Below are positions 1,580-28,377 of a stretch of 51,863 nucleotides of DNA, in pieces. The notes beneath the pieces are model-generated. The model worked only from the letters and a program-made list of their open reading frames with translations, had not been told where the DNA came from and searched no databases. Source of the stretch: Thermoleophilia bacterium (GTDB lineage: Bacteria > Actinomycetota > Thermoleophilia > RBG-16-64-13); assembly GCA_040768135.1 (NCBI GenBank), contig JAXGNF010000008.1, positions 1 to 51,863 of the forward strand, in the 5' to 3' direction. Position numbers and translations under genes: made by a program. Positions within the stretch are counted from its first letter, which is position 1, and every line of letters begins with the position of its first letter.

Positions 1580-1658
1580 GCCGTCCTCCCTTTTTCTACT
1601 CCCTCACTTCGGCCGTTCGAGTCAAAGCCGCAGTTATTATCGCCCACTCTGCGCGGAT

Positions 1659-2426
1659 CTACCGAGAGGTAAGCCGTACTCCGCGCAACTCTACTGCTTT
1701 GTCTGATACGTTGATGGTCAGAACAAACGGTCCGCGCGGAACGGCGTTCGCCAAAATGGAGCTCACCATCCCATCTGTCGCCTTGAGCCGGGCCCAATAT
1801 CCTTGGGATCCCAGGACGACACCCTCATAGGTGCCCGCCATGATATCTTCCCCGACCAAATAGATCCCATCCCCGTACACAGTGGTGACGCCGCCGGTGT
1901 TCGTGGCGCCCCCGGTGGTCCGGTCGCTGCCGGTGGTCGTGGGGGACGGCTGCACCGGATCTCCATTCTCTCCGGCTTCGATCTGTGCCTTCAGGCCCAG
2001 GTTCTCTCGATAGTAGCTCCAGTTGCGCTCCTCGGCATTAGACAGAGCCCTTTTCACCACTCCCAGCTCCTCGCGTACGCGATCCAACTCGGCGGCGGTG
2101 CCGTTGTTCTGCGAGCGGACGACGGCAACCCCCAACGCTGCACCTACCGCCATGAGCACCACCGCGCCCGCGACCCAGGCCGCGAGAAGCGTCACCCGCT
2201 GACGTCTGCGAAAAAAGCGCCGCGGGCCGTGGGAGGACTTTGAGCGTTCGGGCCCACCTAAGCCTTGCGCCTCGGTCGCCTCCCGCTCGGGGGGCTGCGC
2301 AGACGTGGCTTCGTTATGCCCGGTTTTGCCTTCGGAATCCGACGTGACCGCAGACACTCCGCCTGTATACGGCCCTGCCATCTGCCCGCTCGGTCGCGGT
2401 GAGGAGCCAATATCCCACTCGTCCAT
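1659..2426 (-). CDS. Hypothetical membrane-anchored protein (TM helix, coiled coil, Thr/Gly linker, C-terminal GDGIYLVGEDI..GTY domain)
   Basis: Lies within ORF 1659..2840. The ATG at 2426 follows a TGC-GATAAT extended -10 by 7 nt; alternative starts are 2381 and 2357. The C-terminal motif resembles actinobacterial secreted/lipoprotein domains. Confidence 0.6.
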   Translation of the reverse strand: MDEWDIGSSPRPSGQMAGPYTGGVSAVTSDSEGKTGHNEATSAQPPEREATEAQGLGGPERSKSSHGPRRFFRRRQRVTLLAAWVAGAVVLMAVGAALGVAVVRSQNNGTAAELDRVREELGVVKRALSNAEERNWSYYRENLGLKAQIEAGENGDPVQPSPTTTGSDRTTGGATNTGGVTTVYGDGIYLVGEDIMAGTYEGVVLGSQGYWARLKATDGMVSSILANAVPRGPFVLTINVSDKAVELRGVRLTSR

Positions 2427-2447
2427 AGCAAGTATTATCGCACCGGT

Positions 2448-2951
2448 ATGAAACGCTCGGGCCGCGCATGGATCTTGTTGCCTGTGATCATCGTACTCAT
2501 TGCGGTGACCGGTATTCTCGTGTCGAATTACCAGAAAGAAGTGGGCATCGCCCGGCCCGGCAAGGGAGGAGTGGCCGCCGCGTACGCTGCGATCACGGCG
2601 TTTGACTGCTCGGACGGATCCGGCTCCTCCGGCTACCAGGAGTTCAACGAAGCCCTCCTCGCCGCGCTGGTAGCCCGGAAGAACGCCCCCTTGACGAACC
2701 CGGCCGACACCAGACTCGACAACCTCTTGGCCCGGGTGTTGGACTGCCTCATGGCATTGCGAGAAGCCTGGCAGGCCGAGATCGACCATTCTTGGAGTCC
2801 GGACACGCACGGAACGGCCGCCTACTGGAACACCACTCATCCAGCCCTGCGTGTGAGCGCAGACTCCACCCTGACCACGGCCGGAATCCGCAGTCTCTGC
2901 CGTGTGCGGGCTTCAGAGATCTTGAGGGAGGCCGTTGACCTCGTAAGCTGA
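2448..2951 (+). CDS. Hypothetical N-terminally anchored/secreted protein
   Basis: 167-aa ORF with a basic N-terminus and a hydrophobic helix, then a helical domain; no family recognised. Confidence 0.6.
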   Translation: MKRSGRAWILLPVIIVLIAVTGILVSNYQKEVGIARPGKGGVAAAYAAITAFDCSDGSGSSGYQEFNEALLAALVARKNAPLTNPADTRLDNLLARVLDCLMALREAWQAEIDHSWSPDTHGTAAYWNTTHPALRVSADSTLTTAGIRSLCRVRASEILREAVDLVS

Positions 2952-3029
2952 ATACGGGCGGCGGGATCCTCCTCATTCGTGTGTCCGCGTGGTAGAAATC
3001 TGATGCATTTCGTGACATCGTGACAAACG

Positions 3030-4226
3030 ATGACTTCCCACACATCCATGGCGAACCCCGCCCTCGGGCACCGTCTCCCTCTATATCCGACTCAATTCCT
3101 GGTCGCCATGGCGGTCGTCTCCATCGGGCCTCTGCTCAACGGGATGATGAACGATCTGGGCGTATCCCTCAGCAGGGGAGGACTCATCAGCGCCGGCCTT
3201 TATGCCGGAAATGTCACCGGCGCCATCATCCTCAACACGGCCATGGCACGGGTGCAGATCAAACGTGTGCTCCTAGTCGGTACCACCCTGCAGGGGACGG
3301 GGCTCATCGCAGCAGGAGCGATCTCCCGGAACCTCTGGTGCCTGATCGCCGCCTACTTAGTCGTGGGCTTCAGTGGGGCGCTCATGAACACTTCTTGCTG
3401 GATGTGGGTCTCTGCGCACGTCAAGAAAAACACCGCCGCCGCCGCTCTGCAGATGATCCTGTTCTTCGCTTTCGCCATGATGGTCATCCCTCTGATCTTG
3501 GGATCGGCGCTCGACCGAGGCGCCGCCTGGCGGTGGATACTCATCGCCGAGGGCGCTCTCTCGTTGGTGACAACAACGACCTTTCTGTTCCTCCCCCTGA
3601 CCGACGTGCCCGGACGCCAGAACGTGCGCCTGTCGCAGTTGAGACAAGTGGTCGCGTACGACCCAGTGCTGCTTTTCGGCATCATGGGCGCAGGGCTTAT
3701 GTACGTCGGTGCGGAGATGACCATGAACATATGGTTGCCCAAATTCCAGATCGACGTGTTCGCTTCAAGCGACACGTGGGCGGGCCTGTCGGTCACCCTC
3801 TTCTGGATAGGCCTGATCACAGGCCGGCTGCTGGTTATGAGGCTGACCCGGCGCTACTCCTCTTCGTTTCTTCTGTTGATCTGCGCAGGCACTATGGCCG
3901 TCTTCACCATCGCCGTTGCTCTGGCCCCGTCTCAGGCCGTCTCTCTCGCACTGGCGGTGGGAGCCGGTTTGGGCGCCTCGGCTTCGTATGGGCTGATCGG
4001 GAGCTATGCCGGCCGCTTCCCGGGCTGGCAGTCCAGCGTCACTTCTTCGCTTTTCATTTTGGCCGGTGGGGTGGGAAGCATCACCTTCCCGTACGTGATG
4101 GGGCCCCTAGCCAACGCCGCAGGCTTTCGAATTGCCCTCGCCATGATCGCCGCTCCTGCCGTCATCTATGCCCTGTTCGGGCTGCTCATCCGAAGGCGCA
4201 CCGGCGAAGGGGCACGTTCAGCCTAA
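3030..4226 (+). CDS. MFS transporter (12 TM, TsgA/FucP-like)
   Basis: About 12 hydrophobic helices; YVGAE..W and FW.G...GR motifs. Confidence 0.85.
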   Translation: MTSHTSMANPALGHRLPLYPTQFLVAMAVVSIGPLLNGMMNDLGVSLSRGGLISAGLYAGNVTGAIILNTAMARVQIKRVLLVGTTLQGTGLIAAGAISRNLWCLIAAYLVVGFSGALMNTSCWMWVSAHVKKNTAAAALQMILFFAFAMMVIPLILGSALDRGAAWRWILIAEGALSLVTTTTFLFLPLTDVPGRQNVRLSQLRQVVAYDPVLLFGIMGAGLMYVGAEMTMNIWLPKFQIDVFASSDTWAGLSVTLFWIGLITGRLLVMRLTRRYSSSFLLLICAGTMAVFTIAVALAPSQAVSLALAVGAGLGASASYGLIGSYAGRFPGWQSSVTSSLFILAGGVGSITFPYVMGPLANAAGFRIALAMIAAPAVIYALFGLLIRRRTGEGARSA

Positions 4227-4325
4227 CCCCATCGTACTCCTGCAGCCTTCGGCTTCCCGCCGTACGCCGCACATTGGTAAAATCCCTCGGTCGTCTATCG
4301 CCGCCGACCGAGGGAGGGCCGGTCT

Positions 4326-4781
4326 GTGTTTGCCGTCGAGACATCTCAAATGGTTTCGGTACTGCAAACCGCAATCAGCCCAGTGGTGCTGATCTCAGGC
4401 GTGGGACTACTCCTGCTCACCATGACAAACCGTTTGGGGAGGATCGTAGACCGGGCGCGCTCTCTCGCCCTTCGCCTGCGCGGTGCGGACGGGGAGGACC
4501 GAGAGCCGATCCACGCCCAACTCCACATCCTCGCCCAAAGGGCGCGTCTGGTACGCAGGTCTATCGCTTTGGCCTCGTTCTGCGTCCTCTTCGCGTCGCT
4601 GCTGGTGATATCGCTATTCATCACCTCTTTGGCGGGAGCGGAGATCCCGTGGCTGGTGGCCGGCCTCTTCATTCTGAGCCTGCTCAGCTTGATCGCCTCG
4701 CTGGTGGAGTTCATCCGTGACGTGAACCGGTCGCTCGAAGCGACTGCTCTCGAGGTGGGCACCGACTGGCACAAGGAGTAG
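4326..4781 (+). CDS. DUF2721 family membrane protein
   Basis: AISPVVLISGVGLLLLTMTNRLGRIVDRAR signature; start may be ATG 4350. Confidence 0.8.
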   Translation: MFAVETSQMVSVLQTAISPVVLISGVGLLLLTMTNRLGRIVDRARSLALRLRGADGEDREPIHAQLHILAQRARLVRRSIALASFCVLFASLLVISLFITSLAGAEIPWLVAGLFILSLLSLIASLVEFIRDVNRSLEATALEVGTDWHKE

Positions 4782-4905
4782 GGTCGATACGTACCGACTA
4801 CGTCGTCGGGCGACTGAGCTAGTCCGTGTCAACTGCGTGGTTGTGCACCGTACGAGCTGATCCGTCCCTCCTCGCCGGACGACGTTTTGCGCTATCCTCG
4901 CCACC

Positions 4906-5451
4906 ATGGACTTCTCGCGCATCGACACCATGGACGCCGGCGAGTTGCGGACCTATCTTGAGTTTCTGCTCCGGCACTACCGGGTGGTCGACTCCTTCTG
5001 GTTCCTCTACATGGCCGAGGACTACGGCCAGTCCGCCGCAGAACGGTTGAACGAACGGGTCTGGGCCCGCGTGTCGGGCCTGGGCGCACGGGATCTGGTG
5101 AGTCGGTTCAATATCACCGAGAAAGGCTTGGAGGGCTTTCTCAAAGTCCTTCGCCTCTATCCCTGGACTATTCTGATCGAGCACCAGATCGAAGAGTCGC
5201 CCGATGAGATCGTTATCTCGATTCCTTGTTGCGCCACCCAGGAGGCCCGCCGGACCCGAGGACTACCCGAATACGAGTGCAGAGAGATGCACCAGCGTGA
5301 TCTCGAAGGCTTAGCCGGACAGGTCGATCCGCGCATTCGCGTGTACTGCGATTTTGCCCCACCAGGCGAGCGGCCCGCAGGTTACGATTGTCGCTGGCGG
5401 ATCAGGATGGACGCAGACGACGAGCCCGGCCAAGACAAGTCGTCGGCCTAG
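4906..5451 (+). CDS. DUF6125-like protein
   Basis: VDSFWFL, C..QEARR..GLPEY.C..MH, C.FAPP and CRW pattern. Confidence 0.65.
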   Translation: MDFSRIDTMDAGELRTYLEFLLRHYRVVDSFWFLYMAEDYGQSAAERLNERVWARVSGLGARDLVSRFNITEKGLEGFLKVLRLYPWTILIEHQIEESPDEIVISIPCCATQEARRTRGLPEYECREMHQRDLEGLAGQVDPRIRVYCDFAPPGERPAGYDCRWRIRMDADDEPGQDKSSA

Positions 5452-5870
5452 CCGCGCCGTGGCCGACGGCCACCGCCTTTGAGCATGATTATGTGAGCCG
5501 TCACCCCGACGGCAATCAGCAGCAGAAGCGCCCGCAGCCACCACGCATCCACTGCAAACGCGACGGTGCTTCCCATCACCCCCCAAAGGAACGTCAGAGT
5601 GAGCGCTTTGACTCTCCAAGGGATGCCTCGGCCATGCAGGTAGTCGTCAAGGTAGCGACCGAATAGCCGATTAGTCAGCAACCACCGGTAGTAGCGGTCG
5701 GAGCTTCGCGCATAACAAAGTGCGCTGAGAATCAGAAACGGTGTAGTCGGAAGCACCGGGACCACGACCCCCACTATCCCCACTCCAAGAAACAGCGACC
5801 CAGCAACAAAAAGAAGTGTCCTTCGAATCCGGCCGCCGGGTCTAGGTCGAACTGACGTTTCAGCATCCAT
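5448..5870 (-). CDS. ybaN: YbaN/DUF454 family inner membrane protein
   Basis: G.VG.VVPVLPTTPFLILSA.CYARSS signature. Confidence 0.88.
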   Translation of the reverse strand: MDAETSVRPRPGGRIRRTLLFVAGSLFLGVGIVGVVVPVLPTTPFLILSALCYARSSDRYYRWLLTNRLFGRYLDDYLHGRGIPWRVKALTLTFLWGVMGSTVAFAVDAWWLRALLLLIAVGVTAHIIMLKGGGRRPRRG

Positions 5871-21778: not shown

Positions 21779-23452
21779 CTACCTGTTCGACCCGGTGGCG
21801 GGGGGACGACCGAGGCGTGACACCTCGTCCTGGCTGAAGCTGGGCCACTCCGTCGGAACCCCGTCGCGGAAGGCTTCCACCCCATCGCCTTTCTCTAGAA
21901 CCTCACCGATATCGGACACCTCGACCCCGGCAGCCTCAAGCGTCCGCTTCAGGGAACCGGCCTCTGCAGGCCGACAAACGATGAGCAGGCTGCCCGAGCC
22001 GATCAACCCTAAAGGATCAAGGCCCAAATCTTCAGAGATGCGCTCGGTATAGGGGTAAATAGGGATCTTGTCCAAGTGGAGGCGCAGCCGGCGGCCGCCG
22101 GCTGCGCCCAATTCCCTCACGGCGGTCGCGAGCCCGCCCTCAGTGACGTCGTGCAGGGCGGCGACCCCCGCAAAAGAAGCGGCCACGCGTGCTTCGTCTA
22201 CAATGCTGATCTTGTCCAAAAAGGTAGCGGCCTCAGCGATTTCCGTTTCTGTCCATCCTGCTTCGCGCAGGCGAGTGCCGTGTTCTCGAGCTATGAGCCC
22301 CGTACCCTCTACCGCGACCCTCTTGGTCAAGAGGATCCGGTCACTCTCCCGCATCGTCCGCTTATCTAGAAGGGCGGAGGAGCGGGTCGTGCCCGCCATC
22401 GTCCCCACCACTAGAGGCCGCGACACTGCATCAGTGATCTCTGTGTGCCCTCCACAAAGCGTGACCCCACAGTCCAAGCAGACCGCCTGGATATCGCACA
22501 CCATGGCCAACACCTCCCCGGCGGTCGAGCCGGGGGGAAACAGCATGGTGCTTAGCAGCCAGCGGGGAGCGGCTCCGCTCGTCGCTACGTCGTTGGCGTT
22601 CACAATCACCGCGTAACGGGCCATATCATCCGCCGCCAAGGTGATTGGATCAGACGCCAGCACCAGCACCTCATCTGCCGCGATGTCGATAACAGCCGCA
22701 TCCTCCCCGATCCCGGCACCCACGAGGAGGGCCGAGTCTGTTGGGGCGATTCCCGCAAGAGCCTGCTCCAACAGATCCATGGGCAGTTTGCCCGGGGGTA
22801 ACGGCAGTCCCCATCGAATCACCGTGAGGGCCTCGGCAAGCGTTCCCACTACGAAGTCCGCCCCCCTGTCGGGCTGAGACTCGGCCGGATCGTTCCACAG
22901 GAACATCGTCGGCGCTCCGGCTCGTTTCCCCGCCTCCACATCGAAGGCATGGTCCCCGATCATCAACAACCGGGTCACGTCTACGCCCAACCCGTCGGCC
23001 ACGAACCTAACCCCATCAGGCAACGGCTTGGGACCGAGAGGAAGATCTCGGGTAACCACGATCGCAAAGTCGGCCGGATTCATTCCAGGAAGGTTGGCGA
23101 AGGCCCTGTCCACCGCCGCCCGGCTGTTGCGAGTGATGATCGCCATCGGGATCCCCTGTCCACGTAGGAAAGCCACCAACTCAGCAGCTCCCTCGTTGGG
23201 CCTGCAAAGTGTGGCTGCCTCCATCTCGGCCGCATGGAGGATCTCCTCCTTGGGCCGCCTGGCCGATGGATCGTCGATCGAGGCCAGATGCTCGAGCAGG
23301 CCGATATGATGCGGGCAACCTACCGCCGCTCGAATCGCGGCGAAATCAAGCGCTCCCGGTTGCGTAAGCGTTCCATCGAAGTCGAAGACGATGGCTTCGA
23401 ACCGGGGTGGACGGCCGTCTCGTAGGTAAGGACCGATCGCCCCCTTTTTCAC
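21779..23452 (-). CDS. Fusion: HAD-IA hydrolase + AIR synthase (PurM/HypE/ThiL-superfamily) domain protein
   Basis: N-terminal FDFDGTL, TRN, KP.P, GDHAFD. C-terminal GKLP, GEDAAV, DPIT, NAND, GGHTE, HDVTEGG. Start uncertain (GTG 23452 or ATG 23575). Confidence 0.85.
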   Translation of the reverse strand: MKKGAIGPYLRDGRPPRFEAIVFDFDGTLTQPGALDFAAIRAAVGCPHHIGLLEHLASIDDPSARRPKEEILHAAEMEAATLCRPNEGAAELVAFLRGQGIPMAIITRNSRAAVDRAFANLPGMNPADFAIVVTRDLPLGPKPLPDGVRFVADGLGVDVTRLLMIGDHAFDVEAGKRAGAPTMFLWNDPAESQPDRGADFVVGTLAEALTVIRWGLPLPPGKLPMDLLEQALAGIAPTDSALLVGAGIGEDAAVIDIAADEVLVLASDPITLAADDMARYAVIVNANDVATSGAAPRWLLSTMLFPPGSTAGEVLAMVCDIQAVCLDCGVTLCGGHTEITDAVSRPLVVGTMAGTTRSSALLDKRTMRESDRILLTKRVAVEGTGLIAREHGTRLREAGWTETEIAEAATFLDKISIVDEARVAASFAGVAALHDVTEGGLATAVRELGAAGGRRLRLHLDKIPIYPYTERISEDLGLDPLGLIGSGSLLIVCRPAEAGSLKRTLEAAGVEVSDIGEVLEKGDGVEAFRDGVPTEWPSFSQDEVSRLGRPPATGSNR

Positions 23453-23596
23453 ATCCCCATCTCTCAAAGTCGGCCGGCCTCCTTCCTCAAAGCCCGTCGC
23501 CCCCACCGCGGGTCGCCCCCCTCGGCCTGCCACGCTCTCTCCCGTCCACCCTGCCCAAGTACGCCTCACCGCCATGCGGTTCCCCGCAAAGTCACC

Positions 23597-24481
23597 TTAC
23601 GTCAGATAGTAGAGCAGCGCCGGGATCACGCCCACCGCCATGATCGTCGTGGTGAGCACGATCGACGATACCAACTCGGCCTGGTTATCGTACTTACTGC
23701 AAAGGACCGCCGTCGCCACGGCGCTCGGCATCGCCGCCTGAAAAAGCACTACGGCCCTCGGCACCCCCGTCATGCCCAACAGCCATACGGCAAGCAGCCC
23801 TAGAGCAAACCCCCCGCCCACCCGGATCACGCTGGCCACAAGAGTCACGGGGATCTGAGTGAAACGATAACGGCCGATATTCATACCCAACACAAGCAGC
23901 ATCAACGGAACCGAGGCCTGGCCCACGAACTCAAGCGAATTGGCGGCCACCCTGGGTAGGGATACTCCTGTGAGATTGAGAATCAGGCCGATCACCGCCG
24001 CGTAGATGAGCGGAGTGTGTAGCACGGCTTTGATCCCCTGCCTGAGCTGTCTGTGGCCCGAGGCAATGTAGATGCCGACGGAATAAATGAGGAGGCCGTT
24101 TGGGATATAGAAAAGCACGGCGTTCGCCACTCCCTCGTCCCCGAAAGCAAGGTAGAGGATAGGAAAAGGGATGTTGATCGTGTTCATGAACGAAATGGGC
24201 AAATAGAGCGCGGAGTTCCCCTTCCGCCGGAGGCCGAACACCGGCCAGGCGATTGCGAAGCTGCCCACCATGACGATGAGGCTCGAAGCCCAGATGTTAA
24301 GAGCGTTGCCGACCACGATCTTGCTCTCGTAGAGCGAATAAAAGACCAAACAGGGAGTCGCGATGAAGATGGCTACGTCGATCAGGGTGGCCACGCTCGC
24401 ATCTCGGCTCACTCGGCCGTAGAGGTACCCAAGAGCGATCGCGAACACCGTCGGACCGATGATGTTGATGATCTGTTCCAC
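23597..24481 (-). CDS. AEC (auxin efflux carrier) family transporter
   Basis: About 10 TM; FMNTINIPFP, PLIYA, PLMLLVLG, AMPSAV; GTG 8 nt after TATACT. Confidence 0.88.
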   Translation of the reverse strand: MEQIINIIGPTVFAIALGYLYGRVSRDASVATLIDVAIFIATPCLVFYSLYESKIVVGNALNIWASSLIVMVGSFAIAWPVFGLRRKGNSALYLPISFMNTINIPFPILYLAFGDEGVANAVLFYIPNGLLIYSVGIYIASGHRQLRQGIKAVLHTPLIYAAVIGLILNLTGVSLPRVAANSLEFVGQASVPLMLLVLGMNIGRYRFTQIPVTLVASVIRVGGGFALGLLAVWLLGMTGVPRAVVLFQAAMPSAVATAVLCSKYDNQAELVSSIVLTTTIMAVGVIPALLYYLT

Positions 24482-24591
24482 GGCGCGGAAGTATACCGAG
24501 GGCCTTATACGCGGGTCGGCTCTCGCCGCCCGACCGCACCACACGCCGCTCACGTCGTGCGCGAGCAGCCCTCAGATGGTATAAGTGCTCA

Positions 24592-25353
24592 ATGGACGAA
24601 GCGACTTTCTACCGCTGGCTGGTAATAGCCTGGATGATTCTCGCAGCCGCCACCTTCGTGGCGCTTTTCTTTGTGACGGCTCCCTATGGTCGTTTCACCC
24701 GCAGCGGATGGGGACCACGCATCAATGCCCGTTGGGGATGGATACTGATGGAAATCCCGGTGCTCTTCACTTTCCTGGTCATCTACGGAACAAGCGATCG
24801 TAAGTCGAGCCCGGTCAGCCTCGTGCTCCTGGTGTTCTGGGTGGCCCACTATCTCCACCGCTCGTTGATCTATCCCTTCCGCCTGCACGGCAGCCGCCCC
24901 AGCATCACCGTGTCGATCGTCGCCATGGGAGCGGTGTTCAACGTAGGCAACGGCTACCTGAACGGCCGTTACCTCTTCACCCTGGGGCCCCCGCTCGAAG
25001 CCACTTGGCTCTACGACCCCCGTTTCGTGGTGGGAGCACTGCTTTTCTGGTGCGGGTACGCCCTCAACCAGCACTCCGACCGGATCCTCATAGAGTTGCG
25101 GGAGCCTGGCGAGAACGGCTATAAGATCCCGCACGGCGGGGGATATCGGTTCATCAGTTGCCCCAACTATTTGGGAGAGATGATGGAATGGGGAGGCTGG
25201 GCACTTTGTTGTTGGAACCTCGGCGCGCTGGCCTTTTTCGCTTGGACTGTGGCCAACCTGGCTCCACGGGCCATCAAGACCCATCGTTGGTACCAAGAGC
25301 GGTTTCCCGATTATCCGGCCGACCGAAAGGCCCTTCTGCCCTTCATCGTGTAG
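24592..25353 (+). CDS. 3-oxo-5-alpha-steroid 4-dehydrogenase (SRD5A-like steroid 5-alpha-reductase family)
   Basis: APYGR, GWILME.P, HY.HRS.IYPF, NGYLN, HSD.IL..LR, YKIP.GG, SCPNY.GE..EW, NL.PRA...H.WY. Confidence 0.9.
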   Translation: MDEATFYRWLVIAWMILAAATFVALFFVTAPYGRFTRSGWGPRINARWGWILMEIPVLFTFLVIYGTSDRKSSPVSLVLLVFWVAHYLHRSLIYPFRLHGSRPSITVSIVAMGAVFNVGNGYLNGRYLFTLGPPLEATWLYDPRFVVGALLFWCGYALNQHSDRILIELREPGENGYKIPHGGGYRFISCPNYLGEMMEWGGWALCCWNLGALAFFAWTVANLAPRAIKTHRWYQERFPDYPADRKALLPFIV

Positions 25354-25455
25354 ACCGAAGACACTTCTTCGCCTGATGGCCCACCAGACCGCCGCGCGAT
25401 AGAATGGCCGGGCGGGGCAGTCTTTTGCCATCGAACACGAACAGCGGGAGACGTC

Positions 25456-26217
25456 GTGATAACAGGCATGGGCCAAACCAGAACGAGGGCACCCGTCGCC
25501 CGGAGTGTCTTCTGGGTCATGCTCTCGGTCGTGGCTTGGGAATTCTTCCAGTTCATCCGGTCCGGAACTCCGGCACCAGAAGGCTCTTGGGCCCTACCGC
25601 TTGTCGATCTGCTGTTTCTCGTGCTATTGCCGGCCCTTGCGGCTTTTGCCCTCACCCGGCTGTTCCTGGTTCTCAACCAATCAACGCGGGGCACTCTCAA
25701 CATCTATTCGATCATTTCCAGCCCGCTTGCCTGGTTGTTCTGGATCGGTCTCGGCATCGGCATGATCGGGCACGGTCTCCATGTGGCCGGTCACGCCCTG
25801 CGACAAAGCATGCCCGAAACGTTCGCGCAGGGTGAGTTTGCCGCTAAGATCGCCTTTCTCGACAGCACCTCTGGGTATCTGCTTGTAGGCATCGGCTTCT
25901 TTCTCACCACTCTCGTGATCCTCCTGATCGGGCAGGGCGCGGGCCAGCAGATAGTTGGCCCCGTACGGCTGCTTTTCGTGCTGGGCTCACTCGCCACTTA
26001 TGGCACGATCGTCATCTACCTGGGTGTGGGAGGCGGACAGATCATCCTAGCTATTGTCGTGAGCGCAGTACTGAGCGCCGTCGGTTTTTGGACCCTTCAC
26101 CCCTCCGAGATCACCCGAGATCCGGTGGGGGCCTTCGTCGTTCCCGGGACGTTCCTCGCCGGAGTGACCCTCATCGTCTGGACAGTCATCGTGGGAGGGC
26201 GACCTACCTGGCCGTGA
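25456..26217 (+). CDS. Polytopic membrane protein, possibly CLN6-like
   Basis: About 7 TM helices; GHGLHVAG and FLD..SG motifs; see findings. Start may be ATG 25468. Confidence 0.7.
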   Translation: MITGMGQTRTRAPVARSVFWVMLSVVAWEFFQFIRSGTPAPEGSWALPLVDLLFLVLLPALAAFALTRLFLVLNQSTRGTLNIYSIISSPLAWLFWIGLGIGMIGHGLHVAGHALRQSMPETFAQGEFAAKIAFLDSTSGYLLVGIGFFLTTLVILLIGQGAGQQIVGPVRLLFVLGSLATYGTIVIYLGVGGGQIILAIVVSAVLSAVGFWTLHPSEITRDPVGAFVVPGTFLAGVTLIVWTVIVGGRPTWP

Positions 26218-26348: not shown

Positions 26349-26442
26349 GGAGTGGTGTCCGAGATGGCTTAAGGAGCACGACTGGAAATCGTGTAGGCGG
26401 GGGCAACCCGTCTCGAGGGTTCGAATCCCTCCCACTCCGCCA
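26349..26442 (+). tRNA. tRNA-Ser (anticodon GGA)
   Basis: Acceptor GGAGTGG/CCACTCC + GCCA; anticodon arm CACGA-CTGGAAA-TCGTG; long variable arm; GGTTCGAATCC T-arm; TATAAT at 26312-26317. Confidence 0.97.
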
Positions 26443-26463: not shown

Positions 26464-27066
26464 TTGGCCACGCGTATGTCGAAGGCAGGGGCAGTAGCTG
26501 GCTGCCTACTAGTGCTGGTCGTTGCTCTTACCACTGCAGTCGGATGTTCCTCAGACGCAACCACGACCACAGCAGCAACGGATTCGGTTCAGACGTCGAC
26601 TACTGATGGCTCTTCTCCGCCGACCACCGGCTCCCTCATGACGGAATGGGACAAGCTGCTGCGTAACAACGCCAAGATCCAGCATCAGTTTGCCATCTAC
26701 CTGAGCGAGATCGACGCTGCCAACGATGATCCTCTGTTGGGCCTCTACTACGGCATACAGGCCCGCACTAACGCTTTGACCTGCCGAAAGGCACTTGCCG
26801 AAGAGGCGCTCGAGACGGCCGACGCCGCCATGCTGGAGGTCTACTACGCCCTCAATCGAGGCCGCAGTCTGGCCCAGGGCTCTGTAGCCGACATGCTGAG
26901 CGACGCGTATGCCGTCGTCGAGACACTGGGCGCACCCTCGAACGACCCCCAGAACGCAGCCGCCATCCTCGAACGCTTCCTCGAGACATCTGAGCCCATC
27001 GTCGACCAAGTTACGGCGACTATATCGTCCGCGGCCACCACGACGCCCCCTTCGGCCGGTCCATAG
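26464..27066 (+). CDS. Hypothetical lipoprotein with Thr-rich linkers
   Basis: GGAGGAG RBS; signal peptide with AVGC lipobox; helical domain. Confidence 0.7.
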   Translation: MATRMSKAGAVAGCLLVLVVALTTAVGCSSDATTTTAATDSVQTSTTDGSSPPTTGSLMTEWDKLLRNNAKIQHQFAIYLSEIDAANDDPLLGLYYGIQARTNALTCRKALAEEALETADAAMLEVYYALNRGRSLAQGSVADMLSDAYAVVETLGAPSNDPQNAAAILERFLETSEPIVDQVTATISSAATTTPPSAGP

Positions 27067-27131: not shown

Positions 27132-27400
27132 GACCGTGCTAGGTGGGGAGCCAGCGGTGCCCTGTAACCCGCAAACCGCTTCAGCGGGGCTGAACTCCCA
27201 CCCGAGGAGCGGGCCTGTGAGGTCTGACGCCGGTGTGTGGTGTTGACGGCCAGGTCCTGCGCAATGGAAATCCGTGAACCGGGTCAGGACCGGGAGGTAG
27301 CAGCCCTAAGCGGACTCTTTCATGTGCCGCGGGGTAGCTTGGCCTGAGCCGGCTACCGGCGGGCGCTTGGAGGTCCGTCTTCGGAGGTGGGTGCACGGTC
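27132..27400 (+). ncRNA. ffs: Signal recognition particle RNA, large (Alu-domain-containing) bacterial type
   Basis: 5' GACCGTGC pairs with 3' GCACGGTC. Alu-like GGGGAG..AGCGGTGCCCTGTAACCCGCAAACCGCT; helix 8 TCAGGACC-GGGA-GGTAGCAGC. TATACT -10 at 27119 and a T-tract after the 3' end. Confidence 0.93.
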
Positions 27401-27480
27401 TTTGTCTTTTTGATGTCTGTGCGACAAACGAGTCCGGTTCTTACCGCCGGCGGGATACCGGCAGCGCAAGAAAGGAGCAT

Positions 27481-28377
27481 GTGGTAGCGACGACGACCTT
27501 TCTGGCGGCCACTGACTTCTCGGAAGGCGCCTGTGATGCAGTCCGGCGCGCCGCGCTCCTTGCCGCCGAGCAATCGAGCCGGCTCGAGTTGCTGCACGTG
27601 GTCAGTGGGCCGTTCTTGAGAACTTTGGGCGGATTGCTGGGCATGCCGGCGGACATCGAAGACCGTCTCACCGACGAAGCCCGGATTTCCCTGAGAGAAC
27701 TGGCTGCCAATACCGCCTGTGAGGCGGCAGTGGAGGTATCTCATCAAGTCAGAACCGGCAATCCCGTTGAGGAGATCCTGGAGGCCTCCGCAGAAGCCGA
27801 CGTGCTCGTGCTTGGAGCCCACGGATCCAGTGCGCTCAGCGATCACATCTTGGGGACGACCGCGGAACGGTTAGTGCGTAGGTCGACGCGCCCGGTGCTC
27901 GTGACGAACAGGCCGCCCCGGGGGCCTTATGCCCACGCACTCGTGCCGGTGGCGCTCGGTCCGGGATCGGCCGCCGTACTGCAGTTCGCGGTGATGATCG
28001 CCCCAGACGCCGACATAACGGTCTTCCATGCCGCTTCGGTCCCCTATGAAGCGAGGCTGCAGTTTGCAGGTCTCGCAGGCGACGAAATCGAACGATTCAG
28101 GGCCGAGACCAGGCGGAAAGCGCTTTTGGAGATCGATGACCTGATCGAACGCACCGGCGAGACGACCCGGCTTTTTCGCAGATCGGTCGAATACGGCGCG
28201 GCCGTCCGGCTCATACTGCAGAAAGCCGAAGAGCTCGAGGTCGATGTGATCGTCATGGGCAGGCAGGGCGAATCGACCTTCGAAAAGATGCTACTCGGCA
28301 GCGTCACCCGTCACATACTGTCAGGAGCCGCCTGCGACGTCCTTGTGGTAGGGGGACAAGCGTTGGACGACGAGTAA
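27481..28377 (+). CDS. Universal stress protein, tandem two-domain
   Basis: LAATDFS, LVLGAHG...LGTTAERLVR....PVLV and a second IVMG.QG...LLGSV..H......DVLVV; AAGGAG RBS. Confidence 0.92.
   Translation: MVATTTFLAATDFSEGACDAVRRAALLAAEQSSRLELLHVVSGPFLRTLGGLLGMPADIEDRLTDEARISLRELAANTACEAAVEVSHQVRTGNPVEEILEASAEADVLVLGAHGSSALSDHILGTTAERLVRRSTRPVLVTNRPPRGPYAHALVPVALGPGSAAVLQFAVMIAPDADITVFHAASVPYEARLQFAGLAGDEIERFRAETRRKALLEIDDLIERTGETTRLFRRSVEYGAAVRLILQKAEELEVDVIVMGRQGESTFEKMLLGSVTRHILSGAACDVLVVGGQALDDE

Follow-up and report, generated by a model that had tools for sequence, protein, structure and literature searches.

A seven-helix membrane protein of a Thermoleophilia bacterium and its possible, very remote kinship with human CLN6

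Contig JAXGNF010000008.1 from a Thermoleophilia bacterium carries, at positions 25456 to 26217 of the 51,863-nucleotide stretch analysed here (the whole of which is called the window), an open reading frame (ORF) encoding a 253-residue protein, hereafter the target. In the reading that we favour, at slightly better than even probability, the target is a seven-helix inner-membrane protein remotely related to CLN6, the human Batten-disease protein, has a conserved but altered pocket, and is not a CLN6-type glycerophosphoglycerol (GPG) epimerase. The kinship with CLN6 would be real but very remote, and the chance that it exists is put at a little over one half. The family of the target would be a divergent CLN6 branch with a remodelled site.

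The target protein and the CLN6 active site

According to the main texts of two bioRxiv preprints of 9 October 2026, both of which rest on AlphaFold models, CLN6 is a Ca2+-dependent GPG epimerase of the endoplasmic reticulum that turns R,S- into S,S-GPG and acts in the synthesis of S,S-bis(monoacylglycero)phosphate (BMP) (10.64898/2026.10.07.757350; 10.64898/2026.10.07.757477). As reported there, alanine at D59, D131, D173, E174, H178 or E227 abolishes function, and His178 is proposed as the nucleophile that forms a phospho-histidine intermediate; the N-terminus is cytosolic, the C-terminus luminal, the pocket is turned toward the lumen, and the working model is an AlphaFold 3 homodimer (10.64898/2026.10.07.757350). 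The main text of the other preprint places R62 and H127 in contact with the substrate, reports H127Y as inactive, assigns the Ca2+ site to D173, E174 and H178, and has the pocket lined by Y182 and Y223 (10.64898/2026.10.07.757477). A 2008 review, in its part on CLN6, described a seven-transmembrane (7-TM) protein occurring in vertebrates alone. Prokaryotic relatives of CLN6 were not found in print; the main texts of the two preprints do not mention prokaryotic relatives, nor do they contain the words bacteria, archaea or ortholog (10.64898/2026.10.07.757350; 10.64898/2026.10.07.757477).

A preliminary description of this DNA had proposed that the target is a prokaryotic CLN6-family member, from eight sequence blocks set beside human CLN6. 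All eight are present in the target translation in the order that it gave, namely WEFFQFI (residues 28-34), PLVDLLF (48-54), GMIGHGLHVAGHAL (102-115), MPET (119-122), AFLDSTSGYLLVGIGFFL (133-150), IVGPVRLL (166-173), YLGVGGGQI (188-196) and DPVGAFV...IVW (222-242). Each of the human blocks was recovered as well, by by-eye translation of the codon-optimised construct printed in 10.64898/2026.10.07.757477. The numbering of this translation agrees with the published D59, R62, G123, H127, D131, R149, I154, L168, D173, E174, H178, Y182, Y223 and E227.

The residue correspondence used below is the by-eye block alignment. It places S137, Y141 and G192 of the target opposite E174, H178 and E227 of CLN6, in agreement with the remark of the preliminary description that polar CLN6 residues are replaced here. 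H109, D136, Y188 and E29 stand opposite H127, D173, Y223 and D59. The features concerned are as follows (clade A being one of two clades described below).

25456..26217, + strand: target gene, a 253-residue seven-helix membrane protein of clade A (ORF list, relatives, AlphaFold2 model)
25540..25542, + strand: codon of E29, opposite CLN6 D59; nearly invariant (at least 90% of 86 sequences)
25780..25794, + strand: H109-x3-H113, opposite CLN6 H127-x3-D131; H127 equivalent kept, D131 equivalent His
25861..25878, + strand: D136-S137-T-S-G-Y141, opposite CLN6 D173-E174-Y-L-G-H178; Asp kept, Glu lost, Tyr at the phospho-histidine position
26017..26040, + strand: Y188-L-G-V-G192-G-G-Q195, opposite CLN6 Y223-L-V-T-E227-G-Q; Tyr kept, Glu replaced by Gly

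Beyond these residues, the two proteins share a series of collinear anchors. Helix 1 starts with A-P and contains an acidic residue; helix 3 contains G-x3-H, and the loop after it P-E; helix 4 contains D...G...F-F-L and helix 5 I-x-G-P-x-x-L-L, the latter being followed by Y-L...G-Q-I; and helix 7 contains D-x-x-G-x-F...W. By eye, the spacings Y-x3-E, D-E-x3-H and H-x3-[D/N] are alike in the target family and CLN6, and D222 to W242 span 20 residues, as do D256 to W276 of CLN6. The proteins differ in length (311 residues in CLN6 versus 253), the target having neither the N- nor the C-terminal extension, and their loop lengths are unlike.

The relatives of the target provided the informative evidence on the proposed kinship. 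From the 101 screened loci and the window sequence, 85 rows could be aligned over 225 residues or more with no stop, 57 of them distinct; L019, L023, L028, L032, L033, L035, L036, L082, L099 and L103-L110 were dropped as frameshifted or partial. The resulting tree splits the family, with 100/100 support, into clade A (33 rows, including the window) and clade B (24 rows). At position 137 (CLN6 E174) Glu occurs in 16 of the 24 clade B rows and in 0 of the 33 clade A rows. Position 141 (CLN6 H178) is His in 13/24 rows of clade B and in 0/33 of clade A, where it is Tyr in 33/33, and position 192 (CLN6 E227) is Glu in 15/24 and 6/33 rows, respectively. In clade B the motifs are typically F-[LW]-D-E-x-L-G-H-W-L-L-G-x-G-F-F-L and Y-[IL]-G-V-E-G-Q-Q-I. 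The clade A sequence used for the block alignment is without these E, H and E residues. Their occurrence in clade B therefore amounts to a prediction borne out on unseen data. The equivalents of H127, D173 and Y223 are kept in the window protein; the sister clade has, in addition, those of E174, H178 and E227.

The other active-site positions were conserved to different degrees. H109 is kept in 81/86 sequences and in 53 of the 57 distinct rows, with the G-x3-H spacing of G123-H127, and Y188 in 75/86 sequences. D136, kept in most family rows, is the one of the three Ca2+-site carboxylates that remains in the window protein. Of the CLN6 positions D59, R62 and D131, which are essential or pathogenic, the first is E29 in the window protein, a conservative change, and the second is Q32. 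H113, opposite D131, is His in 69/86 sequences and in 28/33 clade A rows, and N or D in part of clade B. Of the six residues without which CLN6 is inactive, the window protein lacks four in all. Relative to CLN6, Tyr takes the place of the nucleophile His, Ser and Gly that of two Glu of the Ca2+ site, His that of D131, Gln that of R62 and Gly that of Y182.

These replacements bear on the idea that the window protein is itself an active epimerase of GPG, or of a similar glycerophosphodiester, that works like CLN6. Its seven helices would fit such an enzyme, as would E29, H109, D136 and Y188 at the positions of D59, H127, D173 and Y223. Against it, the phospho-acceptor position is Tyr in every clade A row, Ser and Gly stand at the E174 and E227 positions, and His stands at that of D131. 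In the mutagenesis reported for CLN6, the alanine mutants of D131, E174, H178 and E227 were each non-functional (10.64898/2026.10.07.757350). We consider a CLN6-like epimerase activity of the window protein to be highly improbable.

The AlphaFold2 model computed with 86 sequences, divergent genera included, predicts seven long helices for the target, at residues 14-34, 49-78, 90-118, 127-159, 169-192, 196-213 and 223-246, with a predicted local distance difference test (pLDDT) score of 87.8 and a predicted template modelling (pTM) score of 0.85. The prediction agrees with the 7-TM architecture given by the preliminary description, and the helix number equals that of CLN6. An earlier model, built with 25 close sequences, was of low quality (pLDDT 69.5, pTM 0.44) and has been superseded. 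On the modelled helices, about 6-7 Arg and Lys residues were counted by eye on the side of the N-terminus, taken as the inside, versus 4 on the other side.

That the target ORF is a genuine gene, far beyond a chance ORF, is clear. It starts with GTG in the open-reading-frame list, and by eye a Shine-Dalgarno-like GGGAG lies at 25446-25450, 5 nt ahead of this codon. Short contigs from four RNA libraries, belonging to four studies, fall on the ORF (25420-25649, 25472-25690, 25814-25964 and 25969-26208); two of the four runs show zero differences, and DNA carry-over is possible in contigs of this kind. Neither Pfam (at E<=1) nor NCBIfam gave a match for the target.

The following mechanism is compatible with these observations. 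In CLN6, Ca2+-binding carboxylates in a pocket that faces away from the cytoplasm would hold a phospho-His178 intermediate. Clade B often keeps what appears to be the CLN6 set (helix 3 has H-x3-[N/D], D-E-x-L-G-H opens helix 4, and Y-x3-E-G-Q lies between helices 5 and 6), and may still perform a CLN6-like phosphoryl migration on a glycerophosphodiester head group. Clade A would keep the part of the pocket formed by E29, H109, D136 and Y188, with Y141 at the nucleophile position, H113 at the D131 position and small residues at both Glu positions. The window protein may thus have retained an outward-facing head-group pocket and lost the Ca2+ and phospho-histidine chemistry. Neofunctionalisation, into an enzyme or a binder, is more likely than gene decay, since conservation in clade A extends to the replacement residues (Y141 in 33/33 rows, H113 in 28/33).

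A more specific version, which we hold to be quite unlikely, takes clade A as a neofunctionalisation within a CLN6 superfamily. Its members would carry out a metal-independent phosphate chemistry, through a phospho-tyrosine or with His113 as base, on a lipid head group at the outer membrane face, and clade B would be a bacterial CLN6-type epimerase. The head group would be that of an isoprenoid- or glycerol-phosphate lipid, and the change from His to Tyr and the loss of the calcium site would have occurred on the branch on which the linkage to a reductase gene arose.

Searches for kinship with CLN6

Several results weigh against the kinship, the first being that no E-value or probability backs homology between the target and CLN6. 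The preliminary description had proposed a check against the Pfam CLN6 profile, PF15156, and this check came out negative: at E<=10 the profile matched 0 of 166 family members and 0 of 61 genomes of the family, its curated cut-off being 27 bits and the speed filters of HMMER discarding most matches above about E 0.1. A phmmer search over 1.84 billion representatives gave 23 matches, all of them family members or (frameshifted) fragments, and nothing outside the family. Word-index searches reached no PF15156 protein, two of the three being judged among their best 120 matches; for the profile word-index search these were the best 120 of 178. One such search, with a 146-residue fragment profile against longer proteins, gave a single match, again a family member, and is weak evidence.

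The alignment itself has weak points too. The comparison with human CLN6 was made by eye and contains sizeable gaps: some 17 residues are extra ahead of helix 3, and the loop behind this helix is some 21 residues shorter. Equivalents of R62 and Y182 are not kept, being Q32 in the window protein and a nearly invariant G145 throughout the family. H141 is missing in 11 of the 24 clade B rows and requires 4 or more changes on the tree, an unusual pattern for a nucleophile that is essential; co-variation of H141 with E137 or E192 offers 3 independent pairs only and so is powerless. The pattern built from the published residue numbers, H-x3-[DN] ... DE-x3-H ... Y-x3-E, fits strictly 1 of the 85 family rows, and its core fits 3 of 85, because position 188 is often Phe or Leu. 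The putative membrane orientation of the target is based on the by-eye Arg and Lys count.

One more indication is ambiguous. Among the near clusters in the ESM Atlas is a bacterial cluster of 362 members, 12% of which carry PF15156; its proteins are similar in length to the target (246 residues) and near to it in language-model feature space (score 0.91, 208/256 features). By the calibration rule of the Atlas the PF15156 label is probably wrong, as it is shared by 1 of the 10 best named matches. The target family, unlike PF15156-positive proteins, is undetectable by this profile, and it keeps the catalytic core only in part of one clade.

The target could instead be an unrelated, lineage-specific seven-helix membrane protein, its likeness to CLN6 resulting from short-motif coincidence or from convergence in helix-rich proteins. 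This explanation is possible, though on balance doubtful. Every statistical search for CLN6 kinship was negative, the Atlas calibration calls the CLN6 label probably wrong, and the CLN6-like residues are not uniform in clade B, all as this explanation would have it. It is opposed by the three independent positions at which clade B has precisely the E, H and E predicted from the other clade. It is also opposed by the pattern from the published residue numbers, which had 0 matches among the 4927 open frames of 150 or more residues in the genome of the window, and 0 among 19998 shuffles. The same helix count and the collinearity of the anchors over all seven helices point in the same direction. 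In addition, the sole Pfam family among the Atlas neighbours, PF15156, is the one that had been named independently before. Taken together, these results leave the proposal of a prokaryotic CLN6-family member without the support of any statistical search, and with a block alignment that correctly predicted three residues in the sister clade; the remote relationship to CLN6 with an altered pocket is the reading we retain.

Other matches were considered and set aside. Scattered sub-threshold Pfam matches of the 166 members, for example to DUF7333 (best E 0.046), HisKA_7TM (E 0.0026, one member) and DUF2070, were judged to be helix-composition noise. PF15156 had no match in the window's own genome. 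In 401 Actinomycetota genomes it had 6 matches of 15-18 bits, which were treated as chance; of the weak loci, two that were inspected proved to be an ABC-permease-like ORF and a 683-residue membrane protein. The weak matches L039-L044, in genomes of families f20 and f45, cover profile positions 117-173. Fold searches of the PDB with the target models did not find a related fold, and PDB sequence searches with three family profiles (A1, A4 and A3) gave 0 matches at E<=10.

The upstream reductase and the gene neighbourhood

The target gene lies directly downstream of a 5-alpha-reductase-type gene, as stated in the preliminary description; the two genes are on the same strand, 102 nt apart. The upstream gene fits the SRD5A/polyprenol reductase/TECR family (PF02544, profile cut-off 22.6 bits), to which the target itself shows no similarity. 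The features of the region are given below.

21779..23575, - strand: HAD hydrolase fused to AIR-synthase-related N- and C-terminal domains, 598 residues, clade-A-specific block (Pfam matches)
23597..24553, - strand: Mem_trans (AEC-type) transporter gene, clade-A-specific upstream block (PF03547, E 7.1e-22; 35/38 close loci, 0/13 divergent loci)
24592..25353, + strand: SRD5A / polyprenol-reductase-type gene, Steroid_dh (PF02544, 170.4 bits, E 3.2e-50, profile positions 3-149 of 150)
25354..25455, + strand: gap of 102 nt between reductase and target; GGGAG lies at 25446-25450, and an RNA-library contig begins at 25420
26349..26442, + strand: tRNA-Ser(GGA), conserved downstream neighbour in both clades (ARAGORN, Rfam)
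26464..27066, + strand: conserved 200-residue ORF of no Pfam family, between tRNA-Ser and SRP RNA (tblastn matches including L072, L079 and L081)
27134..27398, + strand: signal recognition particle (SRP) RNA gene ffs, bacterial large type, downstream anchor (RF01854, 205 bits)

The adjacency of the reductase was conserved in part of the family. In species-representative genomes, a same-strand reductase match stands directly upstream of the target in 38/38 close loci and is full-length in 34 of them. Thirteen loci of the same family come from divergent genera, with target proteins 38-48% identical to that of the window; within about 6 kb, or to the end of the contig, the reductase, the Mem_trans gene and the HAD-AIRS gene occur in 0/13. 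The upstream gene there varies, being a pyruvate kinase, an amine oxidase, a DUF362 protein with Fer4, an H+-pyrophosphatase, a Band 7 protein or a HAD protein. On the tree, all clade A rows and no clade B rows have the adjacent reductase, and the gain of this adjacency coincides with the change of the clade A active site. The reductase link has a single origin, on the clade A branch, and does not characterise the family as a whole.

The preliminary description had further suggested a two-gene lipid module. In this proposal the clade A protein and the SRD5A-type reductase would act together, for example on a polyprenyl or isoprenoid phosphate, and the altered site would be an adaptation to that role. 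This would be compatible with the remote CLN6 relationship favoured here; we regard such a module as unlikely. It is consistent with the 38/38 same-strand loci, with the absence of a terminator-like site from the 102-nt gap, and with the gain of adjacency and the His-to-Tyr change falling on the same 100/100-supported branch. On the other side, the co-occurrence is a single, unreplicated evolutionary event, and functional coupling therefore cannot be shown by it. The entire neighbourhood is conserved among these close relatives, and in all 13 divergent loci the gene persists with no reductase nearby. Moreover, 12 target-carrying genomes have no PF02544 match at E<=1e-5, and 2 have a strong reductase match on another contig. 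Finally, 4 genomes of family f8 have strong, close reductase orthologues and no target gene. The suggestion is thus weakly supported: its adjacency holds among close loci and fails in the divergent genera.

Three further results concern the pair of genes. Neither a consensus promoter nor a consensus terminator was found in the gap between them. A complex prediction for the reductase and the target scored 0.00, which is no verdict and carries no weight either way. The RNA-library contigs, from low-share runs, include none on the reductase ORF and none bridging the gap, and are silent on co-transcription.

Farther upstream, the HAD-AIRS gene has tblastn matches in 34/38 close loci and is absent from the divergent loci. 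None was found in L007, L008, L025 and L037, nor in L017, whose contig ends close upstream; where the region is visible the count is 33/37. In the three loci of genus g256 (L075-L077) a DUF362 and 4Fe-4S protein lies upstream of the target, unrelated to the clade A reductase block, and L075 and L076 have a prismane/hybrid-cluster protein farther upstream.

The downstream side is steady in the divergent loci, with a tRNA in 13/13 and the SRP RNA in 12/13, followed by dnaX. In L078 (G542:C1), target and tRNA are separated by a DDE_5 transposase ORF and group II intron RNA domains, at about 1600-5850, and a cobalamin riboswitch is present at the end of the locus. The product of the ORF at 26464-27066, conserved in many loci of both clades, has a signal-peptide-like start with a Cys after 'AVG' and is lipoprotein-like by eye. 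The SRP RNA at 27134-27398 overlaps the first 77 nt or so of a 351-residue 'Usp' ORF at 27322-28377. The Usp domains of this ORF begin at residue 59, and therefore the true start of the Usp gene is probably later. In other loci, short 26-residue tblastn matches to 'Usp' correspond in fact to the SRP RNA.

Distribution and significance of the family

The target family has a narrow distribution. A word-index search gave 162 relatives at E<=1e-3, unnamed or called 'hypothetical', from Actinobacteria/Thermoleophilia metagenome-assembled genomes (MAGs). Of 55 genomes sampled from the GTDB family to which the window belongs (f1), 50 have an intact, single-copy target gene. The 245 genomes from other families of the class gave just 2 weak, partial matches of 20-21 bits, and in a 401-genome sample of the phylum only 3 chance-level matches of 13-17.5 bits lay beyond f1. 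DNA nearly identical to the window was found in anaerobic-digester and sludge metagenomes. As far as sampled, the family is limited to one Thermoleophilia-like Actinomycetota family of digesters, sludge and sediments. The host is a bacterium, unlike that of human and vertebrate CLN6, and we know of no BMP pathway in it.

Some database entries require caution. P0121, P0124, P0125, P0130, P0137, L033 and L038 are 'relatives' with frameshifted calls from error-prone assemblies, some of which join the reductase and the target. P0128 (226 residues, without helix 3), considered as a bridge to other families, was rejected as a clade B variant that probably arose by deletion or in assembly. The locus is doubled, in near-identical form, in two assemblies (L002/L003, in one MAG and near contig ends, and G642 C3/C11), which probably reflects assembly duplication and not a real second copy.

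The biochemical function of CLN6 was assigned only in October 2026. If the kinship fails, the target would be an ordinary lineage-specific membrane protein. If it is true, the family would provide natural variants (His, Tyr, Leu or Phe at the nucleophile position) at residues mapped by human mutagenesis, and easily expressed proteins for structural work. Should the neofunctionalisation described above be correct, clade B could serve as a purifiable and crystallisable stand-in for the human disease protein. A true kinship would also hint that glycerol-phosphate stereoinversion chemistry predates the eukaryotes.

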